Virus record (IMG/VR): IMGVR_UViG_3300032235_000467
Reading direction: 5' to 3' (one strand)
Length of the DNA: 64,000 nucleotides
From: a virus
The notes under the pieces are model-generated. The model did no database searches and was not told the DNA's origin. It worked only from the letters and a program-made list of their open reading frames with translations. The position numbers and the translations under genes are program-made. Shown in pieces: positions 731-48,581 of this stretch. Position 1 is the first letter of the stretch; each line of letters starts with the position of its first letter.

Positions 731-750
731 TACATAAATTCTATATAGAA

Positions 751-6322: not shown

Positions 6323-6338
6323 GTCGATATTTATATAT

Positions 6339-7318: not shown

Positions 7319-7319
7319 C

Positions 7320-7980: not shown

Positions 7981-7981
7981 T

Positions 7982-33100: not shown

Positions 33101-35261
33101 CTATGCGTATGGTGGTGGTCAATCAATTAATTTACAAATTATTTGGTATGCTTATGATGGTACTTTTACAAACTACTCTTATGTAAATAACGGAGATTGG
33201 GATCCTGGTACTATTAGAATTGGTGAAAACGGTAGTGGTAAAGTATGTATACATTTATCTTCTAACATTTATTATGGTAGGTTTAATGTAAGATGTATAT
33301 ATGATCAAGGGTTTGCACCACTAGAAGGGTGGAGCATAACAGATGCTACATACACTGGTTTAAGTAGATTAGTAACTATTGGCAAAAATGCAATAAATAC
33401 AAGTATTACTGGATTAGCAGCCTCAGAAACTTTACAAACAGTAACAAACAGAGGAAATACTACTACAAATAATATAATTTTTAGTAATTATGGAGTAGGT
33501 GTAGTTGGTACATACAGTGATACAAGGTACCAAGCTGTATTTGCAATGGGAGATTCCTATAAACTTCCTAGTGATGGCACAGGAGTTGGTACTTTATATG
33601 GTATAGCTTGGTCTCATCCTAATAATGGTGGTGCTGCTGCAAACTTGGCATCCCATGGTATGCTAATATTAGAAAATGGTGTATTTAAAGGTGCATGGGG
33701 TGGCGGTAGCTTACGAACACCATCAGATGTAAGAGGAACTGTATTCTATGATTGGAGTGATACAAGCTATTATGTAGATCCTAACAGCTATTCTAGTTTA
33801 TACACTGCTAGATTTTGGGGAGGATCAGTTTATATTAGAGGTAGTGCTCCAACATTATATCTTACAGACACTGATCATATGTCTGCAATGATTCATTGTA
33901 ATAGTGATTTACTATACATTCTTCGTGGTGGAGTAGATAGTACAGATTGGGTACAAATAAGTGGCTCGTGGCCACAGTATTGGAACCTGTCCAATAACTA
34001 TACCTTAATGGGAGGAATAGCTGAAGCTGTAACCGATTTCAGAGCCCCTATATTCTATGATTCTAATGATACAGCATACTATTTAAATCCAGCTGGTACG
34101 TCTAATTTAAATAGTGTATATACAAACTTTGTAAGTACTCAAAACGGATATTGGCATTATGCAGATACTGATAGAAATCCTGGAAGTTCTACTTATTATC
34201 CAAATACGTGGTCAACAGGAGTAAGATTTAGTTTCGCTTCAGCTGGTAATACTGGTACTGGTGGTAACTATTCTGGAGTATTACACTTCCATCCTTGGAC
34301 CGGCACAACAGCTTCTACTGGAGATGCTTCCTATCAATTAGTGTTTGGCAGTACAGCGGTTAATGGAAGTGGGTACCCACAATTAGTAATAAGAAACGGT
34401 ATAGACACTACATGGAATTCTTGGTATTACATACCAATGTACGGACTAAATCAATATGCCGGTGCACTATATGCTACCATATATTATGACTCAACTGACA
34501 CTGCGTATTACCTAGATCCAGCCAGTACATCTAGATTAGCTACGACAATAACAACTACTACATACTTTGGCTCTACCACTTCTCATGGATATGCGGAAGA
34601 ATACGGTACCAACTCATCATCACTTCGTAGAATAGCTTTCATGTCGTTTGACTGGAATGCTGCCTACAATAGTTATAACTATCATGGAATAGCTTCTACA
34701 GATCTAAATGGTACATTTACTGATAGTATGTCCATAAACTCTTTTAATGACATTAATTTAAGAATAGATGCAAATAATAACAATGGTGCTTCTTATGTAA
34801 GATTCCATAATAACTCTGACGTTTCTAACCAATTTGCTTATATAGGATATGACGGATCTGTATATTTATCATATTTTACAGGTACTGGGTACTTTACTGG
34901 TGACGTTATAGCCTACTATTCTGATGCTAGATTGAAAGAAAATGTAAAACCTATAGACTCAGTACTAGAAAAAATATCTAAGATAGGGGGATACTATTAT
35001 ACTCCAAATGCATTAGCTTTGCAATTAAATGCAGCTTCTGATAATAATCAAAAGCTCGGTGTATTAGCTCAAGAGATACAAGGAGTATTCCCAGAAGCAG
35101 TAGAAAAAGCACCGTTTGATAGGGATGAAAATGGTAATTCTAAATCAGGAGAAGACTATTTAACAGTAAAATATGAAAGATTAGTGCCTGTACTTATAGA
35201 AGCTATAAAAGAACAACAAAAACAAATAGAAGAACTTAAATATTTAATAAAAAACAAATAA
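24165..35261 (+). CDS. Giant tail/virion fibre with Gly-Ser/Thr triplet tracts and a C-terminal peptidase S74 intramolecular chaperone
   Basis: 3698 aa; seven (G-S/T-S/T)n tracts, repeated spacer modules, VGIGT repeats and YYLDP repeats; C-terminal YSDARLKENV...GVLAQEI...YERLVPVLIEAIKEQ. Confidence 0.85.
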   Translation: MATWLQINPQDGNATYNNVTVYNTIVANSISGSFTGSFNENDPIFTEKSASLATTGSNIFIGNQTITGSLISSGAVYFPAITNASQSGIVVVDPATGQLYYTTGSITGGASGSMGPSGSSGTSGTAGSSGTSGTSGITGDRYLTSSTSSITLGLSGSITVGTNLAYSTAQTAIIAYDLTNYQEVPVISYNPSTGVLVYGTPITVVGSGTYSTWQVNLSGASGGDGSSGTSGSSGNSGTSGSSGSSGSTGTSGSTGTSGSSGSTGSSGSSGTSGTSGTSGSTGTSGSTGTSGSSGSTGTSGTSGSSGTSGTTGSSGSAGSSGTSGTAGSSGSSGSSGSTGSSGSTGTSGSSGTSGTSGTSGTSGSSGSSGSAGTSGTSGSSGSTGSSGSTGTSGSTGTSGSTGTSGTAGSSGSTGSSGSSGSSGSSGSSGSTGSSGSSGTGFNTINSPAIGRILLADNSTNAATASVSMSFNNGILLLTGSIIATGNIQANTLIVQTITSSVVYSSGSNIFGNALTNTHQFTGSVLVTGSLSIRDLALSSSATRYVVSDLDGRLFYTTASAAGSSGTAGTSGTSGSSGSSGSSGSAGSSGSSGTAGTSGTSGSTGSSGSTGSSGSSGSSGSTGSSGSSGTSGTSGTAGSTGSSGSSGSTGTSGSAGSSGSSGSSGSSGSSGSTGSSGSTGTSGSSGSTGSSGSSGTAGTSGSTGSSGSSGTSGTAGTSGTTGTSGSTGTSGSTGTSGSSGSSGSSGSSGSTGSSGTSGTTGSSGSSGSTGTSGSSGSSGSAGSSGSTGTSGTSGTGFNTINSPAIGRILLADNSTNAATASVSMSFNNGTLLITGSITATGNIQANTLIVQTVSSSVVYSSGSNIFGNNLSNTHQFTGSVQVTGSVSIKNLSLNSGLSQFVVVDPVTGQLYYNNSGAAGSSGSSGSSGTSGSTGTSGSSGSTGTSGSTGTSGTSGSTGSSGSTGSSGSSGSTGSSGSTGTSGSSGTTGSSGTSGSSGSAGSSGSTGTSGSSGSTGSSGSTGTSGSAGSSGSSGSSGTSGSSGSTGSSGSSGSTGTSGSSGSSGSSGTSGSTGTSGSSGSSGSSGSSGSTGTSGTAGTSGSAGSTGTSGSTGTSGSSGSTGTSGSTGSSGSAGTSGSSGTTGTSGSSGSTGTSGSTGTSGSSGSTGSSGSTGSSGSSGSSGTTGSSGTSGSAGRSGDRYLTSSTGSVTLGLSGSITVEPGLAYSTAQTAIISYNISNYQEVPVVSYNPSTGVLTYGTPITVVGSGTYSSWQVNLAGASGGDGSSGTSGSSGSSGQNGSSGTSGQNGSSGSSGSTGTSGTSGTSGSTGTSGSSGSSGSSGSSGSAGSSGTTGSSGTSGSTGTSGSTGTSGSSGSTGTSGSTGTSGTSGTSGSSGSSGSRGSSGSSGSTGTSGTSGTTGTSGSTGSSGSSGSTGSSGSTGTSGSSGSTGTSGSTGTSGSSGSAGSSGSSGTSGSTGTSGTSGTSGSSGSTGTSGSTGTSGSTGTSGSSGSTGSSGSTGSSGSTGTSGSTGTSGSSGSSGSSGSSGSSGSTGTSGSTGTSGSTGTSGSSGSTGTSGSSGTGFNTIHTPAIGRILLADNSTNAATASVSMSFNNGVLLITGSITATGNIQANTLIVQTVSSSVVYSSGSNIFGNSLSNTHQFTGSILVTGSLSIKDLALSSSATRYVVSDLAGKLFYTTASAAGTSGTTGTSGSSGSSGSSGSTGTSGTSGSTGTSGSSGSAGSSGSSGSTGTSGSTGTSGSTGTSGSTGTSGSTGSSGSSGSAGSSGSTGTSGTSGTSGSSGSAGSSGSTGTSGSTGTSGSAGSSGSSGSTGTSGSTGTSGSSGSTGTSGTSGSTGTSGSTGTSGSTGTSGTSGSTGTSGSSGTGFNTIHTPAIGRILLADNSTNAATASVSMSFNNGILLITGSITATGNIQANTLIVQTVSSSVVYSSGSNRFGDASNDTHEFTGSVKITGSIAVRDLAVNAGLTRFVVVDPTTGQLYYRTSGADGSSGSSGSSGSSGSSGSTGTSGSTGTSGSTGTSGSTGTSGTSGTSGSAGSSGSAGSSGSTGTSGSTGTSGSAGTSGSSGSTGTSGTSGSTGSSGSTGTSGTSGSSGSRGSSGSSGSSGSSGSSGSTGSSGSTGTSGSSGSTGTSGSSGSTGTSGTSGSTGSSGSSGSTGTSGSTGTSGSSGSTGTSGSTGTSGTSGSSGSAGSSGSSGSTGTSGSTGSSGSTGTSGSSGSTGTSGSTGTSGSTGSSGSTGTSGSTGTSGSTGTSGSTGTSGSSGTGFNTIHTPAIGRILLADNSTNAATASVSMSFNNGILLVTGSITATGNIQANTLIVQTVSSSVIYSSGSNRFGDAINDSHEFTGSVKISGSIAVKDITLSAGLTRFLVVDSTTGQFYYRTSGADGSAGSSGSSGSSGSTGTSGSSGSTGSSGSTGTSGSTGTSGSTGTSGSTGTSGSSGSSGSAGSSGSTGTSGTSGSTGSSGSTGTSGSSGSTGTSGSTGTSGSTGTSGSSGSTGSSGSTGTSGSTGTSGSTGTSGSTGTSGSTGTSGSTGTSGSTGTSGSTGTSGSTGTSGSTGTSGSSGQTGAAGSSGTSGTGFNTVVNWTNNRVLTSYTSANDAYAENNLTFDGSLLYVNGQQGIGTASPGSYKLSVVQAASANAVNITRVSGYANIYGTNDLVLETDSTFYMGAYTARPIYFNSANGASGTVYIASDGKVGIGTTSPTEKLHVVGGQTSAMFVGSATGYTQGAIILSSGTADSPGARGQGVFLFNEGTDTTWYVGSPYTQGDAFIIARKASTTSYDPAVAQYANALITIDNAGKVGIGTDSPGYKLDVSGNARVTGELVVAKSGTDSLITFPAQTNDPGFIKHYESSNTAVMYFSVSDDDNITGDYFAFGAGGTYRTIIYTNGRIDAAILYDYNNTGYYLDPASTSNLNVVRTQQVLTPNHSLSSVYGSFNTTTTNGYLITTNISYNVFNMPTVIIEGYAYGGGQSINLQIIWYAYDGTFTNYSYVNNGDWDPGTIRIGENGSGKVCIHLSSNIYYGRFNVRCIYDQGFAPLEGWSITDATYTGLSRLVTIGKNAINTSITGLAASETLQTVTNRGNTTTNNIIFSNYGVGVVGTYSDTRYQAVFAMGDSYKLPSDGTGVGTLYGIAWSHPNNGGAAANLASHGMLILENGVFKGAWGGGSLRTPSDVRGTVFYDWSDTSYYVDPNSYSSLYTARFWGGSVYIRGSAPTLYLTDTDHMSAMIHCNSDLLYILRGGVDSTDWVQISGSWPQYWNLSNNYTLMGGIAEAVTDFRAPIFYDSNDTAYYLNPAGTSNLNSVYTNFVSTQNGYWHYADTDRNPGSSTYYPNTWSTGVRFSFASAGNTGTGGNYSGVLHFHPWTGTTASTGDASYQLVFGSTAVNGSGYPQLVIRNGIDTTWNSWYYIPMYGLNQYAGALYATIYYDSTDTAYYLDPASTSRLATTITTTTYFGSTTSHGYAEEYGTNSSSLRRIAFMSFDWNAAYNSYNYHGIASTDLNGTFTDSMSINSFNDINLRIDANNNNGASYVRFHNNSDVSNQFAYIGYDGSVYLSYFTGTGYFTGDVIAYYSDARLKENVKPIDSVLEKISKIGGYYYTPNALALQLNAASDNNQKLGVLAQEIQGVFPEAVEKAPFDRDENGNSKSGEDYLTVKYERLVPVLIEAIKEQQKQIEELKYLIKNK
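24835..31935 (+). repeat. Seven Gly-X-Y (X,Y = Ser/Thr) coding tracts interleaved with repeated spacer modules
   Basis: Direct translation; 9-nt periodic, synonymously diverged DNA. Confidence 0.95.
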
Positions 35262-37266: not shown

Positions 37267-39960
37267 ATGAAACAAAGGTTATTATTTATAGCCCCGCACC
37301 TCTCTACTGGAGGCATGCCGCAATACCTCTATAAGCAAATTGTAGCTCTTTTAGAGGACTTTGACGTTTATTGTATAGAATGGGACAACGTAACAGGGGG
37401 AGTCCTTGTAGTACAGCGTAATAGAATCCTAGAGGCATTGGGAGATAGACTCATTACATTAGGAGAAGACAAGACAGAACTCCTAAACTATGTCAATAAT
37501 AAAATAAAGCCAGACATAGTGCATCTACAGGAGATACCTGAAATGTTTATGGGGTATGGAATAGCTGAAAAGTTATACGCAACTGATCGGAAATACCGAA
37601 TAGTTGAGACCTCTCACGACTCTAGCTACGATGTAACTAAAAAAAGTCACTTCCCTGACAAGTTCATGATGGTAAGTCAGTATCAGGTAGAGGCTTATAA
37701 GAGCTTAAATATACCATGTGAGCTCGTAGAATATCCTATAGAGGATAAAACCAGAACAAAAACTAGAGAAGAACTGATGTCTGAATTAGGATTAGATCCT
37801 AATAAAAAGCATGTCATAACAGTAGGTCTATTCACTCCTAGAAAGAATCAAGCAGAGGTAGTAGAGTACGCAAGAATGCTACAGGATCAACCTATACAAT
37901 TTCATTTTATAGGTAATCAAGCAGACAATTTTAAGTACTATTGGGAGCCTATAATGAAGGATTTCCCATCTAATTGCACATGGTGGGGAGAGAGAAGTGA
38001 CGTAGATACCTTCTATCAAATGGCTGATCTATTTCTGTTTACGTCTAGAGGATTTGCTACAGATAAGGAGACAATGCCGCTAGTAATTAGGGAGGCTATT
38101 AGTTGGAAAGTACCGTCTTTAATATACAACCTTGATGTATATTTACACTACTTTAACAAATATGGCAATATTGGATACCTAAACACCAGTGATAAAATTG
38201 ACAATATATTAAAAATATTAAATAAGTTAGAATTAGATAAGTTAGAAGTAAAAGAAAATAATATGTTTTATACTTTAGAAGGAGAAAAAGATCTAGCTTC
38301 ATACGAATATCCAAACAGTATGTACGAATCTATGATTAAATATGGAGATGCCGCTGGAATTTATTGGGCTACATATTTGTATCATGAGTTGTGTAGATTT
38401 GATGTATGTGTTGAGGAGGGAGATGTATTTGTAGACTTGGGAACAAATATAGGAATATCATCAAAATACGCATTGTTACATGGTGCAAAAGAAGTACATT
38501 GTTTTGAACCAGACCCTGTACTTATAGAACTTATTAAGAAAAATGTCCCATCCAGCGAAATATATCAATATGCTATCGATAGTAAAAGCGAGGAGTTTGA
38601 ATTATATCATTGGCCTTATAATCCAGTAAACGAGGGGCCTAAATATAAATGTAAAAGTGTCACATTAAGAGAGGTATTAAGCCTAGTTAATAAACCAATA
38701 GACTATTTAAAAATAGATATTGAAGGGTTTGAACATAATATCTTTGACGACTTAACATATGAAGAATGTTCCAAATTTAAAAAACTGTTTGTTGAACATC
38801 ATATGCCGGAAAAAACCAATGATTTTTGTGAAGTTTTAAAGAGCAAAGGGTATAACCTTAGTGTTGAGTATGGAAATGGGCAAAATTATATATATGCTAA
38901 ACATGAGAATCCATATTATACAGACAAAAAACAAAATAAAGATCAAATACTGAAAAAAATAACTATGGATAATAAACAGCCTTCTTATAACTTTTGGAGT
39001 AAATGGGATAAGGACGAACAGCAAATGCATTTTGGGGCATATGAAAATGTTAATGAACCCTTAATAGTATCTTTAAGAGAGTATATGTCTGATGGGGTTT
39101 TATGGTCCTCTGATTATGCTTATATGCCAAAAGACGTGGCTTTTTGGATGATTCCTATTAATAAAGGATTATTTGATTACGAAAAAGATATTAATTATGC
39201 AGGAATAAAGATTTGTATATATAAAAAGAAAGACGGAAAAAAAGTATACGAGCAACCGTATTTCAGCAAATTTGTAGATGTACCCAGAGTTACCTTAAGT
39301 AACAGTATTCCATATTATTTAAACTATACTGAATTCTTTATACATGATAAATACGCTAGGTATTTTCGTAAAAAATATCACAATGTAGTTGATGTAGGAG
39401 CTAACGTAGGAGTATTCACAGAGTATTTGATACAAAATGAACATACAGAAAAAGTAATAGCAGTTGAGTGTGATTCAAAAGCTTTATACGATCTAACTAG
39501 AAATTTTAAAAGAGAGTATAGGGTAGAAATAGAGCCAAAAGCTTTGTATCACGAAAATACAAAAATAACATTCTACCATTCAGAAGAAAACCCTGTAATT
39601 AGTAGTACTATAGCTCCTGATAAGTTAGTTAATCATATGGCTGGAGTTAAAGGACAAGATGTTGTAGAAGTAGAAACAATCACTATTAGAGACCTTGTAA
39701 ACAAGTTAGGGTATATTGATTTGTTAAAAATAGACATAGAAGGAGGAGAGTACGAAGTAATAGAAAACCTGGATCCTAATTTGTTTAATCATATCAATAA
39801 TTTTCTAATAGAATGTCATTTCTTTGAATCTGATTATAAAGTAAAGTACGATAATCTTATAGATAAATTAAGAAATGGAGGATATATAGTAGAGGAGTTT
39901 TTGAAAGATCAATCTAGTAATTCAGGAACTAGCGAAGTAATATTTGCATCAAAAATTTAA
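37267..39960 (+). CDS. GT4-family glycosyltransferase fused to two FkbM-like methyltransferase domains
   Basis: PHLSTGGMPQY, VGLFTPRKNQ, ADLFLFTS...ETMPLVIREA (GT-B ExxxxxxxE); SAM motifs VDLGTNIG and VDVGANVG, each followed by LKIDIEG. Confidence 0.88.
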   Translation: MKQRLLFIAPHLSTGGMPQYLYKQIVALLEDFDVYCIEWDNVTGGVLVVQRNRILEALGDRLITLGEDKTELLNYVNNKIKPDIVHLQEIPEMFMGYGIAEKLYATDRKYRIVETSHDSSYDVTKKSHFPDKFMMVSQYQVEAYKSLNIPCELVEYPIEDKTRTKTREELMSELGLDPNKKHVITVGLFTPRKNQAEVVEYARMLQDQPIQFHFIGNQADNFKYYWEPIMKDFPSNCTWWGERSDVDTFYQMADLFLFTSRGFATDKETMPLVIREAISWKVPSLIYNLDVYLHYFNKYGNIGYLNTSDKIDNILKILNKLELDKLEVKENNMFYTLEGEKDLASYEYPNSMYESMIKYGDAAGIYWATYLYHELCRFDVCVEEGDVFVDLGTNIGISSKYALLHGAKEVHCFEPDPVLIELIKKNVPSSEIYQYAIDSKSEEFELYHWPYNPVNEGPKYKCKSVTLREVLSLVNKPIDYLKIDIEGFEHNIFDDLTYEECSKFKKLFVEHHMPEKTNDFCEVLKSKGYNLSVEYGNGQNYIYAKHENPYYTDKKQNKDQILKKITMDNKQPSYNFWSKWDKDEQQMHFGAYENVNEPLIVSLREYMSDGVLWSSDYAYMPKDVAFWMIPINKGLFDYEKDINYAGIKICIYKKKDGKKVYEQPYFSKFVDVPRVTLSNSIPYYLNYTEFFIHDKYARYFRKKYHNVVDVGANVGVFTEYLIQNEHTEKVIAVECDSKALYDLTRNFKREYRVEIEPKALYHENTKITFYHSEENPVISSTIAPDKLVNHMAGVKGQDVVEVETITIRDLVNKLGYIDLLKIDIEGGEYEVIENLDPNLFNHINNFLIECHFFESDYKVKYDNLIDKLRNGGYIVEEFLKDQSSNSGTSEVIFASKI

Positions 39961-39962: not shown

Positions 39963-40790
39963 ATGGTTTTATTTTTATATAGTGACATAAATTGTGAACA
40001 TCAAGCTGTATCATGTATCAAATCATTGTCCAGTAAGATAACAGATGACGTTAAAATAGTTTATTATACTGTAGGATTTGAAAGTTCGTTTGAATTTAAA
40101 AATCTATATAAAATAAAAATAGATTATAAACCCCAATATCCAACTTTTCACTATTACAAAGCGGAGCTGTCCTTATTAACAATGAGGATGTTTCCTAACG
40201 AGTATTATATGTTTTCAGATACGGACATATTATATTCTAGAAGATTTTCTTTTGATAAGATTAAGAGTAATCTATCATACCCTCTAGCTAGTTTTGGGCC
40301 ACATGAATATCCGTATTTATGGGAAAAAAGGGGAGATGTTACTACTATATTTGATGAATCAAAACTAATGGAGTATTTTAATGTTAAAGAAAGATCTCAA
40401 AGATATGTGTGGTCATGTATATATTCTTTCAGTGAACAGACAACAGAGTTTTTTGAAGAGTATACGTCTATGTGCAATAATAGGTATTTGTTAGATAGAA
40501 GACGAGATTATTATCCTATGCACGATGAAACTTCTTTTAACGTTTGTCTTTGGAAAAGAGGAGCAAATAAAAACTTAGGATTTGCATTTTTAAATACTCA
40601 TATATTTGAGTCAGTAAAAAAAACTGAGGAAAATTATATAAAAGATCAAAGGTTAGGTGTTAATGTAGACGATCATGGAAACGATTGGGAGTATATTCAT
40701 GATTCTAAAAATATTATAGGATATCATGGATTTAAAGAAAAAGACTCTATGGAAAAAACATTAAACTACTTACTAAATGAAAATAGTTAA
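39963..40790 (+). CDS. Putative GT-A-fold glycosyltransferase
   Basis: YMFSDTDILY (DxD), HDETSFNVCLW and a C-terminal YHG.K pattern; lies between two GT genes. Confidence 0.6.
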   Translation: MVLFLYSDINCEHQAVSCIKSLSSKITDDVKIVYYTVGFESSFEFKNLYKIKIDYKPQYPTFHYYKAELSLLTMRMFPNEYYMFSDTDILYSRRFSFDKIKSNLSYPLASFGPHEYPYLWEKRGDVTTIFDESKLMEYFNVKERSQRYVWSCIYSFSEQTTEFFEEYTSMCNNRYLLDRRRDYYPMHDETSFNVCLWKRGANKNLGFAFLNTHIFESVKKTEENYIKDQRLGVNVDDHGNDWEYIHDSKNIIGYHGFKEKDSMEKTLNYLLNENS

Positions 40791-42858
40791 TGTAACCCCA
40801 GGTCTGATCCCAATTCCTCCTAACGGTTGGGGAGCTGTAGAGAAGATTATATGGGAAACCCACAAAGCACTGTTAAAACTAGGGCATGATGCTACAATAG
40901 AGTACTTAGATGATGTAAAAGACTATGATGTAGTCCATATTCATGTAGCTAACCTTGCAAATATCGCACATGAAAGAGGCATTCCTTACTATTTTACTAT
41001 GCATGACCACCATGCGTATCTATATGGAAAAGACTCAGAAGTTTTCAAAGAAAACATGCTTGCGATCAAAAATGCCAAAAAAGCATTCGTCCCAGCAAAA
41101 TTCTTGGTCGGTTATTTTGGAAACATACCGGAATATTTCTCACATGGAGTTAACACAGACTACTTCAAACCTAGTAAATCTAGTCCTCATAAGCTACTTT
41201 GTGTCGCTAATAATGGGTTTATACACAATCAGTCTGAAGATAGAAAGGGTTTTGGTTTAGCTATAGAGGCCGCAAAGAATTTAAACCTTCCTATAACAAT
41301 AGCAGGGCCTAGCAATAACAAAAAATATTTTGAGAAGTACCCACCAGACTACGATAAGCTAACTATACTGTATGATTTGACTGAAGATGAATTGAAAAAT
41401 CTTTATAAAGATCATACTTGTTTTATTCATATGTCTATTCTAGAAGCTGGACACCCTAATTTAACCTTATTAGAGGCTATGGCTTCAGGATTACCAATTA
41501 TTGGTACATATGAAGAGGATAATTCATTAGAAGGTATGATTAAAGTAGAAAGAAATGTGGAACAGATGATAAAAGCTATAGTAGAAGTACTATGGGATCC
41601 TTTTACATACGGTATATATTCTGAAAAAGCAAGACAACAAGCCCTAGATTTATCTTGGGACAACAGAACAAAAGAACTATTAAAACATTACAAAATGACT
41701 CTTAGAGATCAAATGGTAAACAGTTATAGAAATACTAATATTTTAAATATAAAATCTAAATCACATGCTCCTACCTTCAATATGAATTTTATAGAAGGTG
41801 CTTTTTTTGAAATATTAGGAGGTCCCGATAGGGAATATACTGTTCAGTTTATAAACAAAAAAACTGGAGAAATAGCACATAAATCTGATATAAAAAAGGA
41901 TCATTGGGTAAAAGCATCCATTTCATATTTTGTAGATTGGGACATATTTGTAGATGATGGTCTGAGTTCTTATGATTTCAAGCCTGATTATACAGGTAAA
42001 AGAGTGTATGTGGCTTTAGATTCAAAAGCCCTTGGGGATACCCTAGCTTGGTTTCCATATGTAGAAGAATTTAGAAAGAAGCACAATTGCAAGATGGTAT
42101 GTTCTACCTTTTGGAATCACTTCTTTGAATCAGAGTACCCAGAAATTGAGTTTGTAAAACCTGGGGAAGTGGTACATAATCTATATGCTATGTACACTTT
42201 AGGGTGGTTCTACAATGCAGATGGGTCTTTTAATATTTTAAAGACACCGGGAGATTTTAGGGATCAGTCTCTTCAAAAGACAGCTTCAGATATACTAGGG
42301 TTGGAATTTGAGGAGATTAGACCAAAGATTAAAAAGCCTGTTGCTGGTCTAAAAGAAAAGAAAGTAACGATTGCAATGCATTCTACAGCACAATGCAAGT
42401 ATTGGAACAATAAAACTGGATGGCAAGAATTGGTTGACAATCTGTTATTAAATGGATATGAAGTAGTAATGGTATCAAAAGAAGAGGATGGATATATGGG
42501 AAATAAATACCCCAAAGGAGTTACACTATTGATGGATACCAGTCTAGAGTCAGTAATGTTTGAAATGCTAACCTCTCAAATGTTTATTGGTATAAGCAGC
42601 GGACTAAGCTGGCTAGCCTGGTCTTTAGGAGTAAATACCTGCTTAATATCCGGAATAACCAAGCCTGAGTCTGATTTTACCCCAACCGTGAGGATTTCAC
42701 CTAAAGAATCGGTATGTAGGTTCTGTTTCAATAAAGAGAAGCTAGATGCAGGGGATTGGAACTGGTGTCCTAAGCATAAAGGAACAGATAGACAGTTTGA
42801 GTGTACAAAGACTATAACTGCACAGGATGTAATAGCAGAAATATATAAAATGCTGTAA
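40777..42858 (+). CDS. GT4 glycosyltransferase fused to a TibC/Aah-like autotransporter O-heptosyltransferase domain
   Basis: N-half: PIPPNGWGAVEKII, EAGHPNLTLLEAMASGLPII. C-half: ALGDTLAWFPY, STAQCKYWNN..GW, FIGISSGLSWLAW, ISG and CRFC...WCPKHKGTDRQFEC. Confidence 0.85.
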   Translation: MKIVNVTPGLIPIPPNGWGAVEKIIWETHKALLKLGHDATIEYLDDVKDYDVVHIHVANLANIAHERGIPYYFTMHDHHAYLYGKDSEVFKENMLAIKNAKKAFVPAKFLVGYFGNIPEYFSHGVNTDYFKPSKSSPHKLLCVANNGFIHNQSEDRKGFGLAIEAAKNLNLPITIAGPSNNKKYFEKYPPDYDKLTILYDLTEDELKNLYKDHTCFIHMSILEAGHPNLTLLEAMASGLPIIGTYEEDNSLEGMIKVERNVEQMIKAIVEVLWDPFTYGIYSEKARQQALDLSWDNRTKELLKHYKMTLRDQMVNSYRNTNILNIKSKSHAPTFNMNFIEGAFFEILGGPDREYTVQFINKKTGEIAHKSDIKKDHWVKASISYFVDWDIFVDDGLSSYDFKPDYTGKRVYVALDSKALGDTLAWFPYVEEFRKKHNCKMVCSTFWNHFFESEYPEIEFVKPGEVVHNLYAMYTLGWFYNADGSFNILKTPGDFRDQSLQKTASDILGLEFEEIRPKIKKPVAGLKEKKVTIAMHSTAQCKYWNNKTGWQELVDNLLLNGYEVVMVSKEEDGYMGNKYPKGVTLLMDTSLESVMFEMLTSQMFIGISSGLSWLAWSLGVNTCLISGITKPESDFTPTVRISPKESVCRFCFNKEKLDAGDWNWCPKHKGTDRQFECTKTITAQDVIAEIYKML

Positions 42859-42882: not shown

Positions 42883-42944
42883 ATATACGCCTATATAGGC
42901 CAGCGAAAGCTGCGTGTAAATACACTTAGAGACTCATACATATG
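42883..42944 (+). promoter_or_regulatory. Structured 5' leader of the 1879-aa fibre gene
   Basis: Consecutive hairpins GCC-TATATA-GGC, CAGC-GAAA-GCTG, GTG-TAAATA-CAC and CA-TACATA-TG; the last includes the start codon. Confidence 0.55.
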
Positions 42945-45900
42945 GCCCAAATACTCAAACTCCGCAGGAGCGCTATATCTGGCGCTAAACCAACTATATC
43001 CCAGATAGAATTTGGTGAAGTAGCAATGAACACAGCTGATGGAAAGCTGTTCATGAAAGTTAGCGGTAGCGGAGGAGACAGCGTAATAGAGATTGGTGCC
43101 AATTCAGGAAATGTATCAGGGTCATTATATTACGTACCGGTATTTACAGGAGTCAATTCAGTAGGCACAAGCTCAATATACCAATCAGGGTCCTTTACCT
43201 CTATAAGGAAAACCACAGTTCCTGTAAATCCAACAAATCCAGATATACTATTTGTAAACGGAGAAGGAGTCAACACTTACAATCTTATATCTGCACACAG
43301 TAATTTAAATAGCTATGTGCAGGTAAACGTACAAAACTACAGTTCAGGGGCTTTTGCCTCTTCAGATATAGTAGCTACCGCAAACGATGGTACTGAAACT
43401 ACCAAGTACATTAACATGGGTATTAATAGTAGTCAGTACACTTCTCCAGATTTTATTGGATCTGCAGGGGATGCGTATTTGTACTCTACTGGTAATGACT
43501 TATATATAGGAAATGCTATTCCCAATAAAAGAGTAATAATATTTAATGGAGGCTTTGATGCTTTTGTACATTCTAAGGTTTTCATACACGAACAAGGTAC
43601 TATAGGCATTAATACCGATACTATTGATTATGACTACCCATCTTCTTTAAGAGTATTTGCAGCAAATACTAGTTCTTTTAACTTAATATACGCACAAGCA
43701 AATGTAAATAACTACTCCCAAATTAATATAAAAAATATAAGCAGTGGGGAGGAAGCATCTTCTGATATAGTAGCTACTGCAGATGATGGAGATGAGGAAC
43801 AGGGGTATATAAATATGGGAATAAACTCTTCCCAGTTTCAAAAGCCCAATACTATAGGAAATCCTAGAGATGGGTATCTATATTCAACAGGTAATGATCT
43901 TTGTATAGGAAATGCTGTTCCAAATAAACAAGTTATTATTTTTAACGGAGGGTTTGATGTAGTCGAAAATGCAAGACTGTGGGTACATAGTCAGGGAACA
44001 GTAAGTATAAACACAGATCAGTATAATGTTAATAATCCGCCATCTTTAGTTGTATATGCTCCAAATACAACAACTAATACATTAATTGAAGGAGTTGGTC
44101 AATCTAATCAATTTTTACAATTAGCAATAGCTAATCAAAGTAGTGGTTCATTTGCCTCATCTGATATAGTTGCCTATAATGATATAGATCCCACAAATCA
44201 AGGAGTTGGATTCATTGATATGGGTATTAGCTCAACTACTTTTAATGATCCCACAAACTATCCAGGATGGGAACCTGGAGAATCATATGTTTATACGGAT
44301 GCTGCTGGAATGACGATAGGAACCACAGCAGATAGTAGTGAAATACACATATTTGCTGGGGGTATTAATCCTGTTGAAAATACTAAATTATTAATAAGAT
44401 CAAATAATCAACACGAATTAACTGGTTCTTTAAATATAAGTGGATCGCTAGTTGTTAATAATGGAATTACAGGCTCCTTATTTGGTACAGCTAGTTGGGC
44501 ATTAAATGCTATAACTGCTTCATATATAACTGCTTCTAATGTTTATGGTCCATATGGCCAAAACAGTGTAATAAGCGCATCACATGCTGTTACAGCATCA
44601 TCAGCGGATGATTTCCTTGTTAGAGGGACCTTAACCGCACAGACTATAATAGTACAAACTATAACATCATCTGTAGAGTTTGTAACGGGATCTACTCATT
44701 TTGGAACTATTATCCAAAATACACATGAATTTACTGGATCCTTATCAATATCTGGATCCTTAGTAATTAACGGCACTTCTTATACAGCAGCCACTTCTGG
44801 AACTAGCGGAACTTCTGGAACAAGCGGATCCTCAGGCACTTCTGGAACCTCTGGATCCTCTGGGTCTACAGGTACTTCCGGATCTTCAGGTAGTACTGGA
44901 ACAAGCGGTAGTGCTGGTACTAGTGGTTCATCTGGCTCATCCGGTTCCTCAGGAACTTCAGGTACTAGCGGTACATCAGGAAGTAGTGGGTCCACCGGTA
45001 CATCAGGAAGTTCAGGATCATCTGGAAGTACTGGCAGCAGTGGAACTAGTGGCACATCCGGCAGCTCAGGCTCTACTGGTACAAGTGGCACATCTGGTTC
45101 ATCTGGAAGTTCTGGATCAACAGGATCCTCCGGTACATCAGGAACATCAGGCAGCTCAGGATCCTCCGGATTTTCTGGCAGTAGTGGATCTAGTGGTTCT
45201 TCGGGATCTACTGGAACTAGTGGTACTTCAGGTACATCAGGAACCTCTGGATCTAGCGGTAGTACTGGTACAAGTGGAACTTCTGGTAGCAGTGGAACAA
45301 GTGGTACATCTGGCTCATCAGGATCCTCTGGTTCTTCAGGGTTATCTGGAACTAGTGGCTCTTCAGGAACATCTGGCTCTTCTGGATCTACAGGAACTTC
45401 AGGTACTTCTGGAAGTAGTGGATCATCTGGTTCTACAGGAAGTTCAGGTACATCAGGAAGCTCAGGTACAAGCGGATCTACAGGTACAAGCGGAACATCT
45501 GGCTCAACAGGTACAAGCGGATCTTCCGGATCATCAGGCTCTTCTGGCACTAGCGGAACTTCCGGTTCTAGCGGCTCATCCGGGTCTTCAGGAAGTACTG
45601 GTTCATCTGGTTCTAGCGGCTCTTCAGGGTCTAGCGGTTCAACGGGCACAAGTGGAACAAGTGGCACATCAGGATCTTCCGGATCATCAGGCTCTTCTGG
45701 CACAGCTGGGTCATCTGGTACAGGATTTACAACTATAAACAGCCCTGCTGTAGGAAGAGTTTTGTTATCAGACGGTAGTGTAAACGCCGCTACTGCATCT
45801 TCTGCTATAGTATATAATGGAGGAGGACTTAGCATATCAGGAAGCACAACTATTACAGGGTCTTTAACAGTATCAAATACAATAACTGCACAGACTTTAA

Positions 45901-48581
45901 TAGTACAGACAATTACTTCCTCAGTAGAATTCGTAACTGGTTCTACACACTTTGGTACAATTATTCAGAATACTCACGAGTTTACAGGTTCTTTAAGTAT
46001 TTCTGGATCTTTAACTATAAATGGAACATCCTACACTGCTGCTACTTCTGGAACATCAGGTACCAGCGGTACAGCAGGATCATCTGGTTCATCAGGTAGT
46101 ACAGGCACATCAGGAACCTCTGGTTCTAGTGGATCTTCTGGTAGTTCTGGTTCCACTGGAACAAGTGGCACATCAGGATCTAGCGGCAGCTCAGGGTCTT
46201 CTGGTAGCACAGGAACTTCCGGAACAACAGGTACTAGCGGAAGCTCAGGATCCTCTGGAAGTACTGGAACTAGTGGTAGCTCCGGTACAAGCGGAACTTC
46301 TGGGTCTAGCGGCAGCTCAGGATCAACAGGTTCGTCAGGATCTTCAGGGACTGCTGGATCTAGTGGATCCTCTGGTACCTCTGGATCAACTGGGTCTTCT
46401 GGCTCATCTGGATCAACTGGAACTAGTGGGTCTAGCGGTAGCTCTGGTTCATCAGGTTCTACAGGAACCTCTGGTTCAACAGGAACTAGTGGATCCTCTG
46501 GTAGCTCTGGATCAACTGGTACATCCGGGACTAGTGGTTCATCAGGTTCATCTGGAAGTTCCGGTTCAACAGGCACTTCAGGTACATCAGGTAGTAGTGG
46601 TAGCGCAGGATCATCTGGTTCAACAGGCACTAGCGGTACATCTGGTTCCTCTGGTACTAGTGGAAGTGCAGGTTCATCAGGATCTACTGGAACAAGTGGA
46701 ACCTCAGGTACGTCCGGGTCTTCTGGTAGCACAGGATCCAGCGGATCATCAGGAAGCTCAGGCTCCTCTGGATCTACAGGATCTTCAGGTAGTACAGGAA
46801 CCTCAGGTACATCTGGCACATCTGGCACTAGCGGATCCTCTGGTACAGGATTTACAACTATAAACAGTCCTGCACAAGGAAGAGTGTTAGTATCAGACGG
46901 ATCTGTAAATGCAGCTACAGCATCAGCAGTATTATTAGTAAATAATGGAGCGGTAGCAATATCCGGAAGTACTATTATAACAGGATCTCTTACTGTAACA
47001 AATACTATAAGCGCTCTTACTTTAGTAGTTCAAACCATATCGTCTTCAGTAGAATTTGTAACAGGTTCTACTAAGTTCGGATCTATACCATCTAACACAC
47101 ATCAATTTACAGGATCAGTAAGTATTACTGGCTCCTTGATAATAAACGGTACATCCTACACTGCAGCTACTTCCGGAACTTCTGGAACATCTGGCTCAAC
47201 CGGAACTAGTGGATCTTCAGGCACATCCGGTTCTACTGGTACCTCTGGCTCAACAGGAAGTAGTGGCTCAAGTGGTTCTAGTGGTTCAAGTGGATCTTCT
47301 GGTAGTACAGGTACTAGCGGTTCTACTGGTAGCTCAGGCTCTTCTGGTAGCACTGGTAGTAGTGGTAGTACTGGAACAAGTGGATCATCAGGGTCTAGTG
47401 GTTCTTCAGGATCATCTGGCTCTACTGGAACAAGCGGTTCTACGGGAACTAGTGGATCAAGCGGTAGTACTGGCTCTTCTGGCAGCAGTGGGTCTACTGG
47501 CACATCTGGTTCTAGCGGAACAAGTGGAAGTAGCGGTTCATCAGGAAGTACCGGATCTTCTGGCTCAACAGGAAGTAGCGGTTCTAGTGGTTCAAGCGGA
47601 TCTACAGGAACATCTGGCTCAACAGGAACTTCAGGGTCTAGCGGTTCTTCTGGATCAACCGGTACCTCAGGATCAACTGGTACAAGTGGATCTTCAGGTA
47701 GTACAGGAACTAGCGGTACCTCAGGCACATCTGGTTCATCTGGATCATCTGGATCATCAGGTACTAGCGGATCTAGTGGCAGTTCTGGTAGCACAGGAAC
47801 ATCTGGCTCAACAGGAACTAGTGGATCTTCTGGTAGTTCTGGCTCTACTGGATCATCAGGAACTAGTGGATCAAGCGGTACAGGGTTTAATACCATAAGC
47901 AATGCTGGTATTGGTAGAGTTGTAGTATCTGACGGAACTGTCAATGCGGCCACAGCATCAGCTATCTTAACTGTTAATAACGGAGCGGTAAGTATGTCTG
48001 GCAGTGCATTCATAACTGGATCACTGACAGTATCAAATACAATAACTGCACAGACTTTAATAGTACAAACCGTAAGTTCAAGTGTAGTTTTTTCCAGTGG
48101 ATCAAACGTATTTGGAAACAGCTTATCTAATACACATCAGTTTACTGGTAGTGTAACCATAACTGGTAGCTTATCTGTAAATAACAGTAGCGTAGTGCTG
48201 TCTAATCAGACAGGATCAATGTCTGTTTTAACAGCATCACATGCTTTGACAGGAAGCAATCCATTTATAATAGGCAATAGTCAGTTTAACACTACAGGAT
48301 CAGCCACAGCAAATGGAACTACAGCTGTATCTCAGATACCTACAGGATCATACACATCTGCATTCTATAGATATACGCTAGCCTCAGCCTCTAATGCTAG
48401 GGCAGGAGAAGTGATATCTGTATGGAGTGGCTCTGTGGTAAGATTTAGTGAATTCACAACTACGGATATAGGAAACACATCAACAGCTGTATTCTCAGTA
48501 ACTATAAGTTCTGGTAACGTTGTATTGAATCTATCTTCTTCTGGGGGTTGGAATGTAAAATCTATTGCAAATTTATTATAA
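42942..48581 (+). CDS. Large fibre protein with Gly-Ser/Thr triplet tracts
   Basis: 1879 aa; N-terminal LKLRRS...GEVAMNTADGKLF fibre-attachment-like motif; three SSDIVA...MGI repeats; three G-S/T-S/T tracts with shared spacer modules. Confidence 0.8.
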   Translation: MAQILKLRRSAISGAKPTISQIEFGEVAMNTADGKLFMKVSGSGGDSVIEIGANSGNVSGSLYYVPVFTGVNSVGTSSIYQSGSFTSIRKTTVPVNPTNPDILFVNGEGVNTYNLISAHSNLNSYVQVNVQNYSSGAFASSDIVATANDGTETTKYINMGINSSQYTSPDFIGSAGDAYLYSTGNDLYIGNAIPNKRVIIFNGGFDAFVHSKVFIHEQGTIGINTDTIDYDYPSSLRVFAANTSSFNLIYAQANVNNYSQINIKNISSGEEASSDIVATADDGDEEQGYINMGINSSQFQKPNTIGNPRDGYLYSTGNDLCIGNAVPNKQVIIFNGGFDVVENARLWVHSQGTVSINTDQYNVNNPPSLVVYAPNTTTNTLIEGVGQSNQFLQLAIANQSSGSFASSDIVAYNDIDPTNQGVGFIDMGISSTTFNDPTNYPGWEPGESYVYTDAAGMTIGTTADSSEIHIFAGGINPVENTKLLIRSNNQHELTGSLNISGSLVVNNGITGSLFGTASWALNAITASYITASNVYGPYGQNSVISASHAVTASSADDFLVRGTLTAQTIIVQTITSSVEFVTGSTHFGTIIQNTHEFTGSLSISGSLVINGTSYTAATSGTSGTSGTSGSSGTSGTSGSSGSTGTSGSSGSTGTSGSAGTSGSSGSSGSSGTSGTSGTSGSSGSTGTSGSSGSSGSTGSSGTSGTSGSSGSTGTSGTSGSSGSSGSTGSSGTSGTSGSSGSSGFSGSSGSSGSSGSTGTSGTSGTSGTSGSSGSTGTSGTSGSSGTSGTSGSSGSSGSSGLSGTSGSSGTSGSSGSTGTSGTSGSSGSSGSTGSSGTSGSSGTSGSTGTSGTSGSTGTSGSSGSSGSSGTSGTSGSSGSSGSSGSTGSSGSSGSSGSSGSTGTSGTSGTSGSSGSSGSSGTAGSSGTGFTTINSPAVGRVLLSDGSVNAATASSAIVYNGGGLSISGSTTITGSLTVSNTITAQTLIVQTITSSVEFVTGSTHFGTIIQNTHEFTGSLSISGSLTINGTSYTAATSGTSGTSGTAGSSGSSGSTGTSGTSGSSGSSGSSGSTGTSGTSGSSGSSGSSGSTGTSGTTGTSGSSGSSGSTGTSGSSGTSGTSGSSGSSGSTGSSGSSGTAGSSGSSGTSGSTGSSGSSGSTGTSGSSGSSGSSGSTGTSGSTGTSGSSGSSGSTGTSGTSGSSGSSGSSGSTGTSGTSGSSGSAGSSGSTGTSGTSGSSGTSGSAGSSGSTGTSGTSGTSGSSGSTGSSGSSGSSGSSGSTGSSGSTGTSGTSGTSGTSGSSGTGFTTINSPAQGRVLVSDGSVNAATASAVLLVNNGAVAISGSTIITGSLTVTNTISALTLVVQTISSSVEFVTGSTKFGSIPSNTHQFTGSVSITGSLIINGTSYTAATSGTSGTSGSTGTSGSSGTSGSTGTSGSTGSSGSSGSSGSSGSSGSTGTSGSTGSSGSSGSTGSSGSTGTSGSSGSSGSSGSSGSTGTSGSTGTSGSSGSTGSSGSSGSTGTSGSSGTSGSSGSSGSTGSSGSTGSSGSSGSSGSTGTSGSTGTSGSSGSSGSTGTSGSTGTSGSSGSTGTSGTSGTSGSSGSSGSSGTSGSSGSSGSTGTSGSTGTSGSSGSSGSTGSSGTSGSSGTGFNTISNAGIGRVVVSDGTVNAATASAILTVNNGAVSMSGSAFITGSLTVSNTITAQTLIVQTVSSSVVFSSGSNVFGNSLSNTHQFTGSVTITGSLSVNNSSVVLSNQTGSMSVLTASHALTGSNPFIIGNSQFNTTGSATANGTTAVSQIPTGSYTSAFYRYTLASASNARAGEVISVWSGSVVRFSEFTTTDIGNTSTAVFSVTISSGNVVLNLSSSGGWNVKSIANLL

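Follow-up and report, generated by a model that had tools for sequence, protein, structure and literature searches.

To our knowledge, the enzymes of the bacterial autotransporter heptosyltransferase (BAHT) family have so far been described solely as modifiers of proteobacterial autotransporters, in connection with virulence. The closest described pairs of enzyme and substrate are TibC–TibA and Aah–AIDA-I of E. coli (PDB 4RAP and 4RB4; Yao et al. 2014, PMC4358343). TibC combines a β-barrel (residues 1–97) with an atypical GT-B domain, a thumb and an iron finger, and assembles hand in hand into a dodecamer by means of Phe265-Val266, a pair of adjacent hydrophobic residues at the tip of its thumb, and Phe368 (PMC4358343). 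The lipopolysaccharide (LPS) heptosyltransferases WaaC and WaaF (GT9; PDB 2H1H and 1PSW) belong to the same CAZy-level superfamily as the phage protein described here, P0001, and resemble it in the Pfam GT9 assignment, the core of GT-B type and the GxxSGxxH/W region. They differ from it, however, in having no β-barrel, thumb or iron finger, and their acceptor is a lipid-linked sugar rather than a protein.

Two further systems are relevant to the acceptor side. Freeman et al. 2023 reportedly described, in mycobacteriophages, the O-glycosylation of virions by phage-encoded glycosyltransferases. As we propose for P0001, it is the phage's own structural proteins that are thought to be modified there, on Ser/Thr-rich stretches and in the host cytoplasm; the mycobacteriophage enzymes nevertheless belong to other glycosyltransferase families, they target C-terminal tails of the capsid and tail-tube proteins of actinobacteriophages, and BAHT domain, iron finger and triplet-repeat fibres are all missing from these systems. 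The nearest glycosylated prokaryotic collagen-like tract that we know of is that of BclA, the collagen-like glycoprotein of the Bacillus anthracis exosporium, a Gly-X-Thr fibre in which Thr carries O-linked, partly methylated oligosaccharides. BclA differs from the phage tracts discussed below in its proline-rich GPT repeats, in being modified by glycosyltransferases unrelated to BAHT, and in not being a virus protein. Literature searches found no published account of a phage BAHT, and megablast gave no match at the DNA level among phage records.

The gene and its setting

The window analysed is the whole 64,000-nucleotide stretch of IMG/VR record IMGVR_UViG_3300032235_000467; positions refer to it, and every feature located below lies on the + strand. 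It carries genes for a large terminase, portal, major head protein, head–tail adaptor and tail sheath, and these virion genes confirm the phage setting given in the initial annotation. The P0001 gene (40777..42858, 693 aa; Pfam, NCBIfam and ~80 homologues) lies within the late virion-structure and fibre block of an uncultured T4-like phage, and shares its first 14 nt with the end of the gene upstream. It belongs to a three-gene cassette, GT4-FkbM-FkbM, GT8-like GT-A and GT4-BAHT. The first partner (37267..39960, 897 aa) has a GT4 and two FkbM methyltransferase domains according to Pfam, NCBIfam and PHROG. The second (39963..40790, 275 aa), which has no Pfam match, has a GT-A (GT8-like) fold and is grouped with viral nucleotide-diphospho-sugar transferases in the ESM Atlas.

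Either side of the cassette lie three giant proteins, the likely acceptors, with ~1,100 Gly-Ser/Thr-Ser/Thr triplets in total: a 3698-aa protein (24165..35261) with 548, a 1879-aa fibre protein (42942..48581) with 269, the gene for which begins 83 nt past that of P0001, and a 1566-aa fibre protein (52207..56907) with 288. Like the genes of TibC and Aah, that of P0001 adjoins the gene of its likely substrate, a Ser-rich protein of highly repetitive sequence. The arrangement is otherwise unlike theirs: the gene is phage-borne, its neighbours encode phage fibre proteins that carry Gly-Ser/Thr triplets, with no autotransporter or β-helix substrate present, and the likely acceptor is a triplet tract as opposed to a 19-residue β-helix repeat.

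P0001 also departs from TibC and Aah in its N-terminal GT4 fusion (aa ~1–303, 40777..41685), noted in the initial annotation and now found by Pfam, AF2 and Foldseek to be a complete domain. PF00534 and PF13692 match this half at 33.7 and 35.2 bits (Pfam cut-offs 26.4 and 27); AF2 models residues 1–302 confidently (pLDDT mostly 85–95) as a compact GT-B fold of two Rossmann domains, of the retaining type; and Foldseek retrieves MshA, BshA, a methylmannose mannosyltransferase and tll1591 at E 1e-11 to 1e-13. A tether (aa 307–332, 41695..41772, beginning at Met307), delimited by AF2 and homologue comparison, follows with pLDDT 54–73, the pTM of the whole protein being 0.54. Next come a β-barrel (aa 333–401, 41773..41979), which has seven strands in the AF2 model, falls within the ~375-column TibC superposition and is the counterpart of the TibC barrel, and a catalytic GT-B domain (aa 409–693, 42001..42855) with thumb and iron-finger insertions, defined by NCBIfam, the TibC alignment and AF2. 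Pfam GT9 (PF01075) exceeds its cut-off across residues 518–631 of the latter. As modelled, residues 307–693 are thus a BAHT half tethered by a flexible linker behind a retaining GT4. Pfam and AF2 show two soluble glycosyltransferase folds only, and the enzyme looks soluble, as expected of a cytoplasmic BAHT acting ahead of export or assembly. The fusion is kept in ~80 homologues of 660–720 aa. Family-wide, the BAHT domain is found in 965 clusters at 50% identity (E<=1e-30), in most cases as a fusion with GT4, GT-A, FkbM or another methyltransferase, or in tandem copies.

Membership of the TibC/Aah family

The motifs from which the C-terminal half was originally recognized as TibC/Aah-type are all present (FNMNFIEGA, WVKASISYFVDW, ALGDTLAWFPY, STAQCKYWNNKTGW, FIGISSGLSWLAW and CRFC...WCPKHKGTDRQFEC), and that recognition is upheld by both profile and fold. 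The NCBIfam equivalog TIGR04414 (hepto_Aah_TibC) matches residues 350–691, that is, profile positions 25–373 of 374, with E 2.5e-80 and 270.3 bits against a curated cut-off of 200, and TibC (4RAP) matches P0001 with E 1.8e-49. The AF2 model of the BAHT half has pLDDT 89.6, lower (~79) in the thumb region, and its top Foldseek match is TibC (4RAP/4RB4), at TM 0.80–0.82 over ~375 of 381–390 residues. The fold of the whole protomer, including β-barrel, atypical GT-B domain with its four-stranded N-lobe, β-hairpin thumb and iron finger, is therefore common to the two proteins (TM 0.8), at ~31% identity. The comparison with LPS heptosyltransferases had been put forward as the one by which the assignment might fail. 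WaaC and WaaF superpose at TM 0.42–0.55 only, and the WaaC, WaaF and WaaQ equivalogs of NCBIfam, at 21, 19.6 and 16.7 bits, fall far below their cut-offs of 467, 185 and 437; profile and fold comparison both place P0001 with TibC rather than with WaaC and WaaF, and the assignment withstands this comparison.

Functional positions of TibC were taken from PMC4358343 and their conservation counted in 125 relatives. The TibC catalytic base, Asp110 of the LGD motif, corresponds to Asp421 (42037..42039; aligned to the site of the D110A substitution in 4RB4), and is Asp in 124 of the 125. Thr226 and Lys230, which bind the donor β-phosphate (PMC4358343), correspond to Thr537 and Lys541 of the STAQCKYWN motif (42385..42399); the first is Thr or Ser, and the second Lys, in every relative. 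Ser607 and Trp612 (42595..42612) align with TibC Pro300 (AAH Ser294), the position of heptose C6 stereoselectivity, and with Trp305, which contacts the sugar O4 (PMC4358343); Trp305 is invariant (125/125), and position 300 is Ser in 72 relatives and Gly in 50. The iron-finger motif (42715..42804) comprises Cys647, Cys650, Cys664 and Cys676, equivalent to TibC Cys339, Cys342, Cys358 and Cys370, together with Phe674, equivalent to Phe368. Each Cys is kept in 121–123 of 125 relatives, and the four are predicted to form a 1Fe-0S iron finger as in TibC. Alignment to TibC thus agrees with the initial annotation as to the LGD Asp and the iron-finger Cys, and the codons of Asp421 and the four Cys were checked in the DNA. 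The thumb hairpin is three residues shorter than that of TibC, with Tyr573-Met574 (42493..42498) in place of Phe265-Val266 at its tip; a GYMGN motif is near-invariant in the clade to which P0001 belongs.

Judged by sequence and model, then, the C-terminal 387 residues are a genuine and probably working member of the TibC/Aah family, with the predicted role of a cytoplasmic protein O-glycosyltransferase. An inactive scaffold was considered and rejected, the catalytic residues all being conserved, as was DNA glucosylation, the fold being that of a protein-modifying enzyme.

The acceptor: recurring gene pairs in phages and bacteria

P0001 belongs to an environmental branch of 75 rows, which is long and separate in the family tree (length 0.6–0.7, support 100). 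Within it, a triplet tract occurs in the same locus as the enzyme in 13 of 27 phage loci and 11–13 of 20 bacterial loci that have lost the equivalent of TibC Arg286 (the non-Arg loci; see below), and in 7 of 10 basal bacterial loci that retain it, so that about 20 of 30 bacterial loci have a tract neighbour in all. The corresponding figures are 1/50 for classic BAHT loci and 0/17 for Arg-bearing phage loci. The loci share a tree, and these counts are hence not independent observations. The bacterial enzyme is a stand-alone protein of ~380 aa with no further glycosyltransferase nearby, which ties the tract association to the BAHT domain itself; its partner is a small secreted protein or lipoprotein encoded 100–1300 bp away. 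There is precedent for reading the substrate from the neighbouring gene, since classic BAHT genes adjoin that of their known substrate AIDA-I, an arrangement recovered in our control locus, where the Aah gene adjoins AIDA-I.

The pairing is not universal. About half of the phage loci have no tract within 10 kb. A complete related phage, G001, has none next to its enzyme but encodes five giant tract proteins at other places in its genome; G002 (85% complete) carries the enzyme without a strict tract; and in Flavobacterium phage immuto, which by its capsid is the nearest isolate, enzyme and tracts are both absent. The cultured Microcystis phage Mel-JY01 has the enzyme at 4750–8430 and an unannotated tract protein in the ORF at 2–3049 of PP395634.1; the interrupted tracts of the latter were overlooked by the strict DNA pattern, and zero counts from that pattern are for this reason weak evidence. 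From the recurrence of enzyme and tract gene pairs in phages and bacteria, we infer that the Gly-Ser/Thr-Ser/Thr tract proteins are the acceptor.

On balance we think it probable that the BAHT domain primes, and that GT4 and the neighbouring enzymes extend, glycans on the Gly-Ser/Thr-Ser/Thr tracts of the phage's own fibres. Late in infection, in the host cytoplasm, the BAHT domain would place the first sugar on tract Ser/Thr hydroxyls with Asp421 as catalytic base. The enzyme would probably act as an oligomer stabilized by its iron finger, modifying the repeats over and over, in the manner of TibC acting on TibA; a TibC-like dodecamer may, however, be unable to accommodate the 300-aa N-terminal fusion. 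Extension and capping of the glycan would then fall to the fused GT4 and to the transferases and methyltransferases encoded alongside. The two-step ‘priming plus extending’ role suggested at the outset for the BAHT and GT4 halves is plausible.

The donor sugar

TibC Arg286 contacts N1 of the adenine and is the basis of ADP specificity, and its replacement by Ala abolishes or largely diminishes activity (PMC4358343). The equivalent residue in P0001 is Val593 (42553..42555). The position is non-Arg in 48 of 125 relatives, essentially one clade of 46 rows, well supported, in which Val, Thr, Ile, Ala or Leu replaces Arg; it takes in every GT4-fused phage form as well as Methylococcales and other bacterial genes. 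Other clade-specific changes lie close to the donor site, such as His535 in place of TibC Gln224, which adjoins the phosphate-binding motif.

Our default reading, to which we give about even weight, is that the donor is heptose from host ADP-heptose, and ‘heptosyl’ is only inferred for P0001. As the adenine-reading Arg is absent throughout the clade, another nucleotide sugar is a live alternative. The earlier suspicion of a different donor gains some support from the clade-wide loss of Arg286, with heptose remaining the default; the reason then offered, that ADP-heptose may be unavailable in Bacteroidota hosts, does not hold generally for Flavobacteriales, an HldC-type gene scoring over its curated cut-off in 24 of the 61 Flavobacteriales genomes sampled.

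That the same enzyme and acceptor are served by a donor other than ADP-heptose, the non-Arg clade having switched nucleotide or sugar (to a GDP-, UDP- or ADP-hexose or GDP-heptose, for example) and being BAHT in fold but not heptosyltransferases, is in our view somewhat short of an even chance. Besides Val593 and His535, it is favoured by the gene content of G001, in which no heptose-pathway genes were found, GmhA (SIS_2) and NTP_transferase included, when the genome search proposed at the outset was carried out on relatives of the phage. Non-Arg relatives also occur in Chloroflexota, Staphylococcaceae and Acetivibrio metagenome-assembled genomes with no HldE or HldC match over cut-off, although these genomes may be incomplete or hold binned phage DNA, and in a Microcystis phage. 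The LPS of cyanobacteria is usually without heptose. Against a switch, there is no variation in the Trp that contacts the sugar O4 or in the Thr and Lys that bind phosphate, P0001 shares with AAH a Ser at position 300, and an HldC or HldE gene is present in all four relative-carrying genomes tested (proteobacterial, Flavobacteriales or Bdellovibrio-like), as well as in the Flavobacteriales sample just mentioned. The hydrogen bond between Arg286 and adenine is, moreover, termed weak by the TibC authors (PMC4358343).

Several candidate sugar-nucleotide genes in related phages were rejected as heptose-pathway genes. The CTP_transf_like match in G001 is weak and lies inside an unrelated 1358-aa protein, and that of the ‘cytidylyltransferase-like’ gene of Mel-JY01 is also weak; neither has a homologue in the window. 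The SIS_2 (GmhA-like) gene of a third related phage, G003, adjoins NeuB and SDR genes and looks like part of a nonulosonic-acid pathway. Among the neighbours of the bacterial enzyme–tract pairs, Pfam identifies exporters and a protease; sugar-nucleotide genes are absent, and these neighbourhoods therefore give no clue to the donor.

Alternative products and targets

The ATG at 41695 encodes Met307, and the BAHT half might also, or mainly, be made from it as a separate 387-aa protein, which could form a TibC-like ring without GT4. The linker is flexible in the AF2 model, stand-alone phage homologues start within ~10 residues of Met307, and in one related phage each half has a gene of its own, the two genes overlapping. 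The leader of this ATG is A-rich with no Shine–Dalgarno sequence, as are those of all real gene starts in the window; because no window gene has a Shine–Dalgarno sequence and all leaders are equally A-rich, this test is uninformative, and in so A-rich a genome the ATG is indistinguishable by sequence from other in-frame ATGs. Of 80 fused homologues, on the other hand, only 27 retain Met307, while W294, Y305 and Y317 are invariant, the region being conserved as protein sequence, and the ~80 homologues have neither stop codon nor frameshift between the domains. We thus consider separate expression improbable.

Many phage glycosyltransferases modify host O-antigen. That P0001 acts on host parts (LPS core, surface proteins or adhesins), for superinfection exclusion or host takeover, would suit the PHROG label of its GT4 half (‘moron, auxiliary metabolic gene and host takeover’) and the fact that GT9 is mainly an LPS heptosyltransferase family, but is very improbable given LPS model scores of 17–21 bits against cut-offs of 185–467, the poor fold match with WaaC and WaaF, the position of the gene in the late fibre module, the repetition of the enzyme–tract pairing in bacteria, and a make-up, by Pfam and AF2, of just two soluble glycosyltransferase folds.

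Implications

Modification of the phage's own fibre tracts, the reading we prefer, rests on a BAHT fold with catalytic residues and iron-finger Cys intact in a phage late-gene cassette, and on a pair of enzyme and (Gly-Ser/Thr)n protein that recurs from Methylococcales to T4-like phages. It would carry the biology of the BAHT family beyond a few pathogens to viruses of the environment, in keeping with the roughly one thousand 50%-identity clusters, mostly multidomain proteins of types found on phage contigs, and would define a new predicted acceptor class. A broader view, which we regard as speculative and rather unlikely as a whole, is that the E. coli adhesin heptosyltransferases are a side branch of a much larger, so far undescribed family of aquatic phages and free-living bacteria, with proline-free (Gly-Ser/Thr-Ser/Thr)n acceptors, a main clade, that without the adenine-reading Arg, which does not use ADP-heptose, and a protein-priming module in phages. 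If this were true, methylated glycans would be assembled on the giant fibres of the virion by shuffled multi-enzyme assembly lines, and a virus would have a glyco-collagen or mucin-like coat.

Phage virion glycosylation beyond the actinobacteriophages would become directly testable, with Mel-JY01 as a cultured system, and P0001 might provide a compact cytoplasmic enzyme for the glycosylation of repeat polymers. Heavy glycosylation of the fibres would matter for how the phage adsorbs, how stable it is and how it evades grazing or immunity.

Identity and structure of the fusion protein

The open reading frame at 40777–42858 (+) encodes a protein of 693 aa, P0001, in which all the motifs quoted in the initial annotation were found. 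Its residues 154–286 match the GT1/GT4 families in Pfam and residues 518–631 match GT9. The NCBIfam profile TIGR04414, entitled 'autotransporter strand-loop-strand O-heptosyltransferase', covers residues 350–691 (349 of 374 profile positions) at 270.3 bits, against a cut-off of 200 (E = 2.5e-80), and TibC (PDB 4RAP/4RB4) matches P0001 at E = 1.8e-49. The surrounding DNA carries a myovirus structural block comprising large terminase, portal, major head protein, adaptor, a tail-fibre-assembly-like protein and sheath. The proposal of a TibC/Aah-type domain fused to GT4 in a phage is borne out by the TIGR04414 score, the GT1/GT4 match and these structural genes. The resemblance is far beyond chance: P0001 is a phage protein in which a real domain of the bacterial autotransporter heptosyltransferase (BAHT) family is joined to a retaining GT4.

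A model of the BAHT half, built with a 35-sequence alignment (pLDDT 89.6, pTM 0.86), has TibC chains as its top Foldseek matches (E = 2e-31, TM 0.80–0.82). About 375 columns are aligned out of 381–390 residues, so that both the beta-barrel at the N-terminus and the region of the iron finger lie within the match. A grouping with the LPS heptosyltransferases, named at the outset as what would refute the proposal, is seen neither with Foldseek, where WaaC, WaaF and a Veillonella GT9 reach a TM of only 0.42–0.55, nor with the NCBIfam LPS heptosyltransferase equivalogs, which score 17–21 bits on P0001, below their cut-offs of 185–467. The full-length model combines a pLDDT of 87.1 with a pTM of 0.54, and residues 303–332 fall to pLDDT 54–73; P0001 is thus predicted to consist of two well-folded domains joined by a flexible tether. 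In structure comparison, the N-terminal domain resembles the retaining GT4 enzymes MshA, BshA, methylmannose-polysaccharide mannosyltransferase and tll1591.

The methionine pointed out at 41695 is Met307 of P0001, encoded by an ATG. None of 37 gene starts in the window (e.g. 751, 4055, 6339, 20512, 57897 and 60444) has a Shine–Dalgarno sequence; all 37 genes have A/T-rich leaders, and the 30 nt upstream of ATG 41695 are alike. Met307 is kept in 27 of 80 fused homologues, the residues flanking it are conserved as protein sequence, and stand-alone homologues begin no more than about 10 residues from it. Separate expression of the BAHT domain from this ATG is possible, but none of these features specifically favours it. 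The motif ATATTTAT(A), which recurs 10–25 nt upstream of many structural genes, is probably a late promoter.

Functional residues

In TibC, Asp110 is the catalytic base, Thr226 and Lys230 bind the beta-phosphate, Arg286 contacts adenine N1 and Trp305 contacts heptose O4; the position concerned with C6 stereoselectivity is Pro300 (Ser294 in AAH), Phe265-Val266 at the thumb tip and Phe368 serve in dodecamer assembly, and the iron ligands are Cys339, Cys342, Cys358 and Cys370 (PMC4358343). These residues were mapped with a HMMER alignment and an alignment of 125 phage and bacterial relatives. Asp110, Thr226, Lys230, Trp305 and Phe368 are conserved in P0001 as Asp421, Thr537, Lys541, Trp612 and Phe674, and the four cysteines as Cys647, Cys650, Cys664 and Cys676, so that the LGD aspartate and the Cys4 set first recognized in the sequence both align with TibC. 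Pro300 corresponds to Ser607, as in AAH; Phe265-Val266 is Tyr573-Met574, in a thumb shorter by three residues; and Arg286 is not conserved, Val593 standing in its place.

Among the 125 sequences, the catalytic Asp, the phosphate-binding Lys and the Trp are essentially invariant, and each iron-finger Cys is kept in 121–123. Arg286 is kept in 77, the other 48 having Val, Thr, Ile, Ala, Leu or Met. The BAHT domain of P0001 is probably active. Relatives from a Nisaea MAG (L091) and a Pacearchaeota MAG (L093) have lost all four cysteines, and that at L085 has Asn for the catalytic Asp (L085/L084 being Bradyrhizobium/Oxalobacteraceae MAGs); these may be iron-free or inactive variants.

Domain architecture and phylogeny

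A word-indexed search returned 5,158 proteins at E ≤ 1e-5. In an exhaustive profile search, 2,455 clusters at 50% identity reach E ≤ 1e-3, and 965 of these reach E ≤ 1e-30. The top matches are mostly multidomain proteins of 500–2,000 aa in which the BAHT domain is usually C-terminal, with GT4, FkbM or other methyltransferases, or GT34 as partners, or is present in tandem. Of the 67 loci in IMG/VR, about 30 carry the same 693-aa fusion (43–83% identity), and a GT4–BAHT fusion also occurs in the 735-kb huge-phage records LR756501 and LR756503 (41%). At the locus L044, the GT4 and BAHT halves are encoded apart, by two genes that overlap. The gene directly upstream of P0001, at 39963–40790 (+), encodes a 275-aa GT-A protein of GT8-like fold with no Pfam match; it groups in the ESM Atlas with viral GT-A (GT8-like) nucleotide-diphospho-sugar transferases, and other viral proteins carry its fold joined to GT9/BAHT, methyltransferase or GT4 domains. 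Given the varied fusions, the split at L044 and the GT8-like partner, the BAHT domain is one of the shuffled modules from which phages put together their glycan assembly lines. Tandem BAHT paralogues, as neighbouring genes or as two domains of one protein, are seen in Selenomonadales/Acidaminococcaceae (L106, L108, L109, L111, L112, L117, L122 and L123) and in the phage loci L043, L059, L062 and L063.

Trees of 125 domains (FastTree) and of 59 domains (IQ-TREE) agree. The classic bacterial BAHTs, from Enterobacteria (including Aah beside AIDA-I), Burkholderia and relatives, Selenomonadales and Lentisphaerae, are split by a long branch of 0.6–0.7 changes per site, with support 100, from an 'environmental' branch of 75 rows. 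Within that branch P0001 falls in a clade (support 97–98) together with all the GT4-fused forms from phages, with Microcystis phage Mel-JY01 and with genes on the chromosomes of Methylococcales and other bacteria. Throughout this clade the Arg is lacking, and the Arg state changes only two or three times across the trees; further substitutions specific to the clade include Gly575 in place of the thumb Trp267 of TibC and, next to the phosphate-binding motif, His535 for TibC Gln224.

The proposed acceptor

Three giant proteins rich in Gly-Ser/Thr-Ser/Thr triplets surround the cassette to which P0001 belongs: one of 3698 aa (24165–35261; 548 triplets), one of 1879 aa (42942–48581; 269 triplets), starting 83 nt past the end of the P0001 gene, and one of 1566 aa (52207–56907; 288 triplets). 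A Laminin_G_3 (ConA-like lectin) protein is encoded at 48548–49387 (+), after the first fibre gene, and a protein of the same family immediately follows the BAHT gene of a Pseudobdellovibrionaceae genome (L087, 7199–7966).

Every tree locus was scored for a tract of six or more triplets. Counted over loci that are phylogenetically related to one another, tracts occur in 13 of 27 Arg-less and none of 17 Arg-bearing phage loci, in 11 of 20 Arg-less bacterial loci (with shorter or looser tracts at L076 and L080 besides), in all seven gammaproteobacterial rows that bear the Arg at the base of the environmental branch, and in one of 50 classic loci (Bordetella sputigena). For roughly half of the phage loci, the flanking sequence retrieved contains no tract.

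In the bacteria, the tracts, of the form (SGT)n, (SGS)n or (TGT)n, come after a signal peptide or lipobox in small proteins whose genes lie 100–1300 bp from a stand-alone BAHT gene of ~380 aa. Such pairs sit on large bacterial contigs or complete chromosomes, in Methylomicrobium lacus, Methylococcales, Arenicellales, Pseudobdellovibrionaceae and Bradyrhizobium. By Pfam, the genes around the Methylomicrobium pair encode a MacB-type exporter, a subtilase and no further glycosyltransferase, which argues that the tract association belongs to the BAHT domain itself. In a Methylomicrobium MAG (L073, 1023–10165), FtsX/MacB_PCD, ABC ATPase, HlyD, TolC-like OEP, subtilase and zf-HC2 anti-sigma-like genes flank the pair, L080 and L076 being similar; the exporter and protease genes may be devoted to secreting and processing the repeat protein. 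Tract proteins with phage tail-fibre-like ends occur on an 'uncultured Bacteroides' MAG contig of 33% G+C (L081, 7606–9129) and a 'Rickettsiaceae' MAG contig (L072, 3362–5977); both contigs probably stem from phages or prophages whose DNA ended up in MAG bins.

In the complete related genome G001 (182,846 bp, terminal repeats), the 10 kb to either side of the enzyme gene are free of tracts; five giant tract proteins lie elsewhere in it. The strict pattern finds none in a second relative, G002 (85% complete), and neither enzyme nor tracts were found in Flavobacterium phage immuto, which among isolates has the closest major capsid protein (54.8%). Mel-JY01 (PP395634.1) gave no tract by the strict DNA pattern. 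An unannotated open frame at 2–3049 (+), which runs off the record start and encodes at least 1016 aa, is full of triplets broken by GTR, GTD or GTG, and lies 1.7 kb upstream of the gene for the phage's 1226-aa GT4...BAHT enzyme; GenBank places other small genes over it, two on the opposite strand. Taking these data together, we favour, with moderate confidence, priming of O-glycosylation on the phage's own Gly-Ser/Thr fibres as the most likely role of P0001.

The donor sugar and host

Whether the sugar is a heptose is evenly poised. In favour of ADP-heptose, the residues that contact phosphate and sugar are kept in the 125-sequence alignment, and the HldC/HldE adenylyltransferase model TIGR02199 is over cut-off in all four relative-carrying bacterial genomes tested, a Flavobacteriales MAG included. 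The supposition that Bacteroidota may lack ADP-heptose holds only in part, since TIGR02199 also exceeds its cut-off in 24 of the 61 genomes that were sampled across the order of this MAG. Against ADP-heptose stand the loss of Arg286, the lack of a GmhA-type SIS domain and of NTP_transferase in G001, and the presence of Arg-less relatives in Chloroflexota, Staphylococcaceae and Acetivibrio MAGs, which have no HldC/HldE match over cut-off in bins that may be incomplete or hold phage DNA. The sole CTP_transf_like match of G001 is weak, lies inside an unrelated protein and was set aside. As hints to the host, the capsid relatives are from Flavobacterium phage and then Microcystis phage, the G+C content outside repeats is 30–37%, and Shine–Dalgarno sequences are lacking. 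Phage G003 (219 kb; L069, 513–3295) clusters NeuB, a SIS_2 isomerase, a short-chain dehydrogenase and a xylose-isomerase-like TIM barrel, a set that resembles a pathway to a nonulosonic-acid or Kdo-like sugar, encoded by the phage.

Implications

Virion O-glycosylation is known in mycobacteriophages, by enzymes unrelated to BAHT; a literature search found nothing on BAHT-type enzymes in phages. New here are the residue-by-residue test of family membership, the Arg-less clade, the clade-resolved tract counts with the classic clade as internal control, the checks of donor availability and the tract reading frame of Mel-JY01. The last belongs to a cultured system, in which fibre glycosylation is testable.
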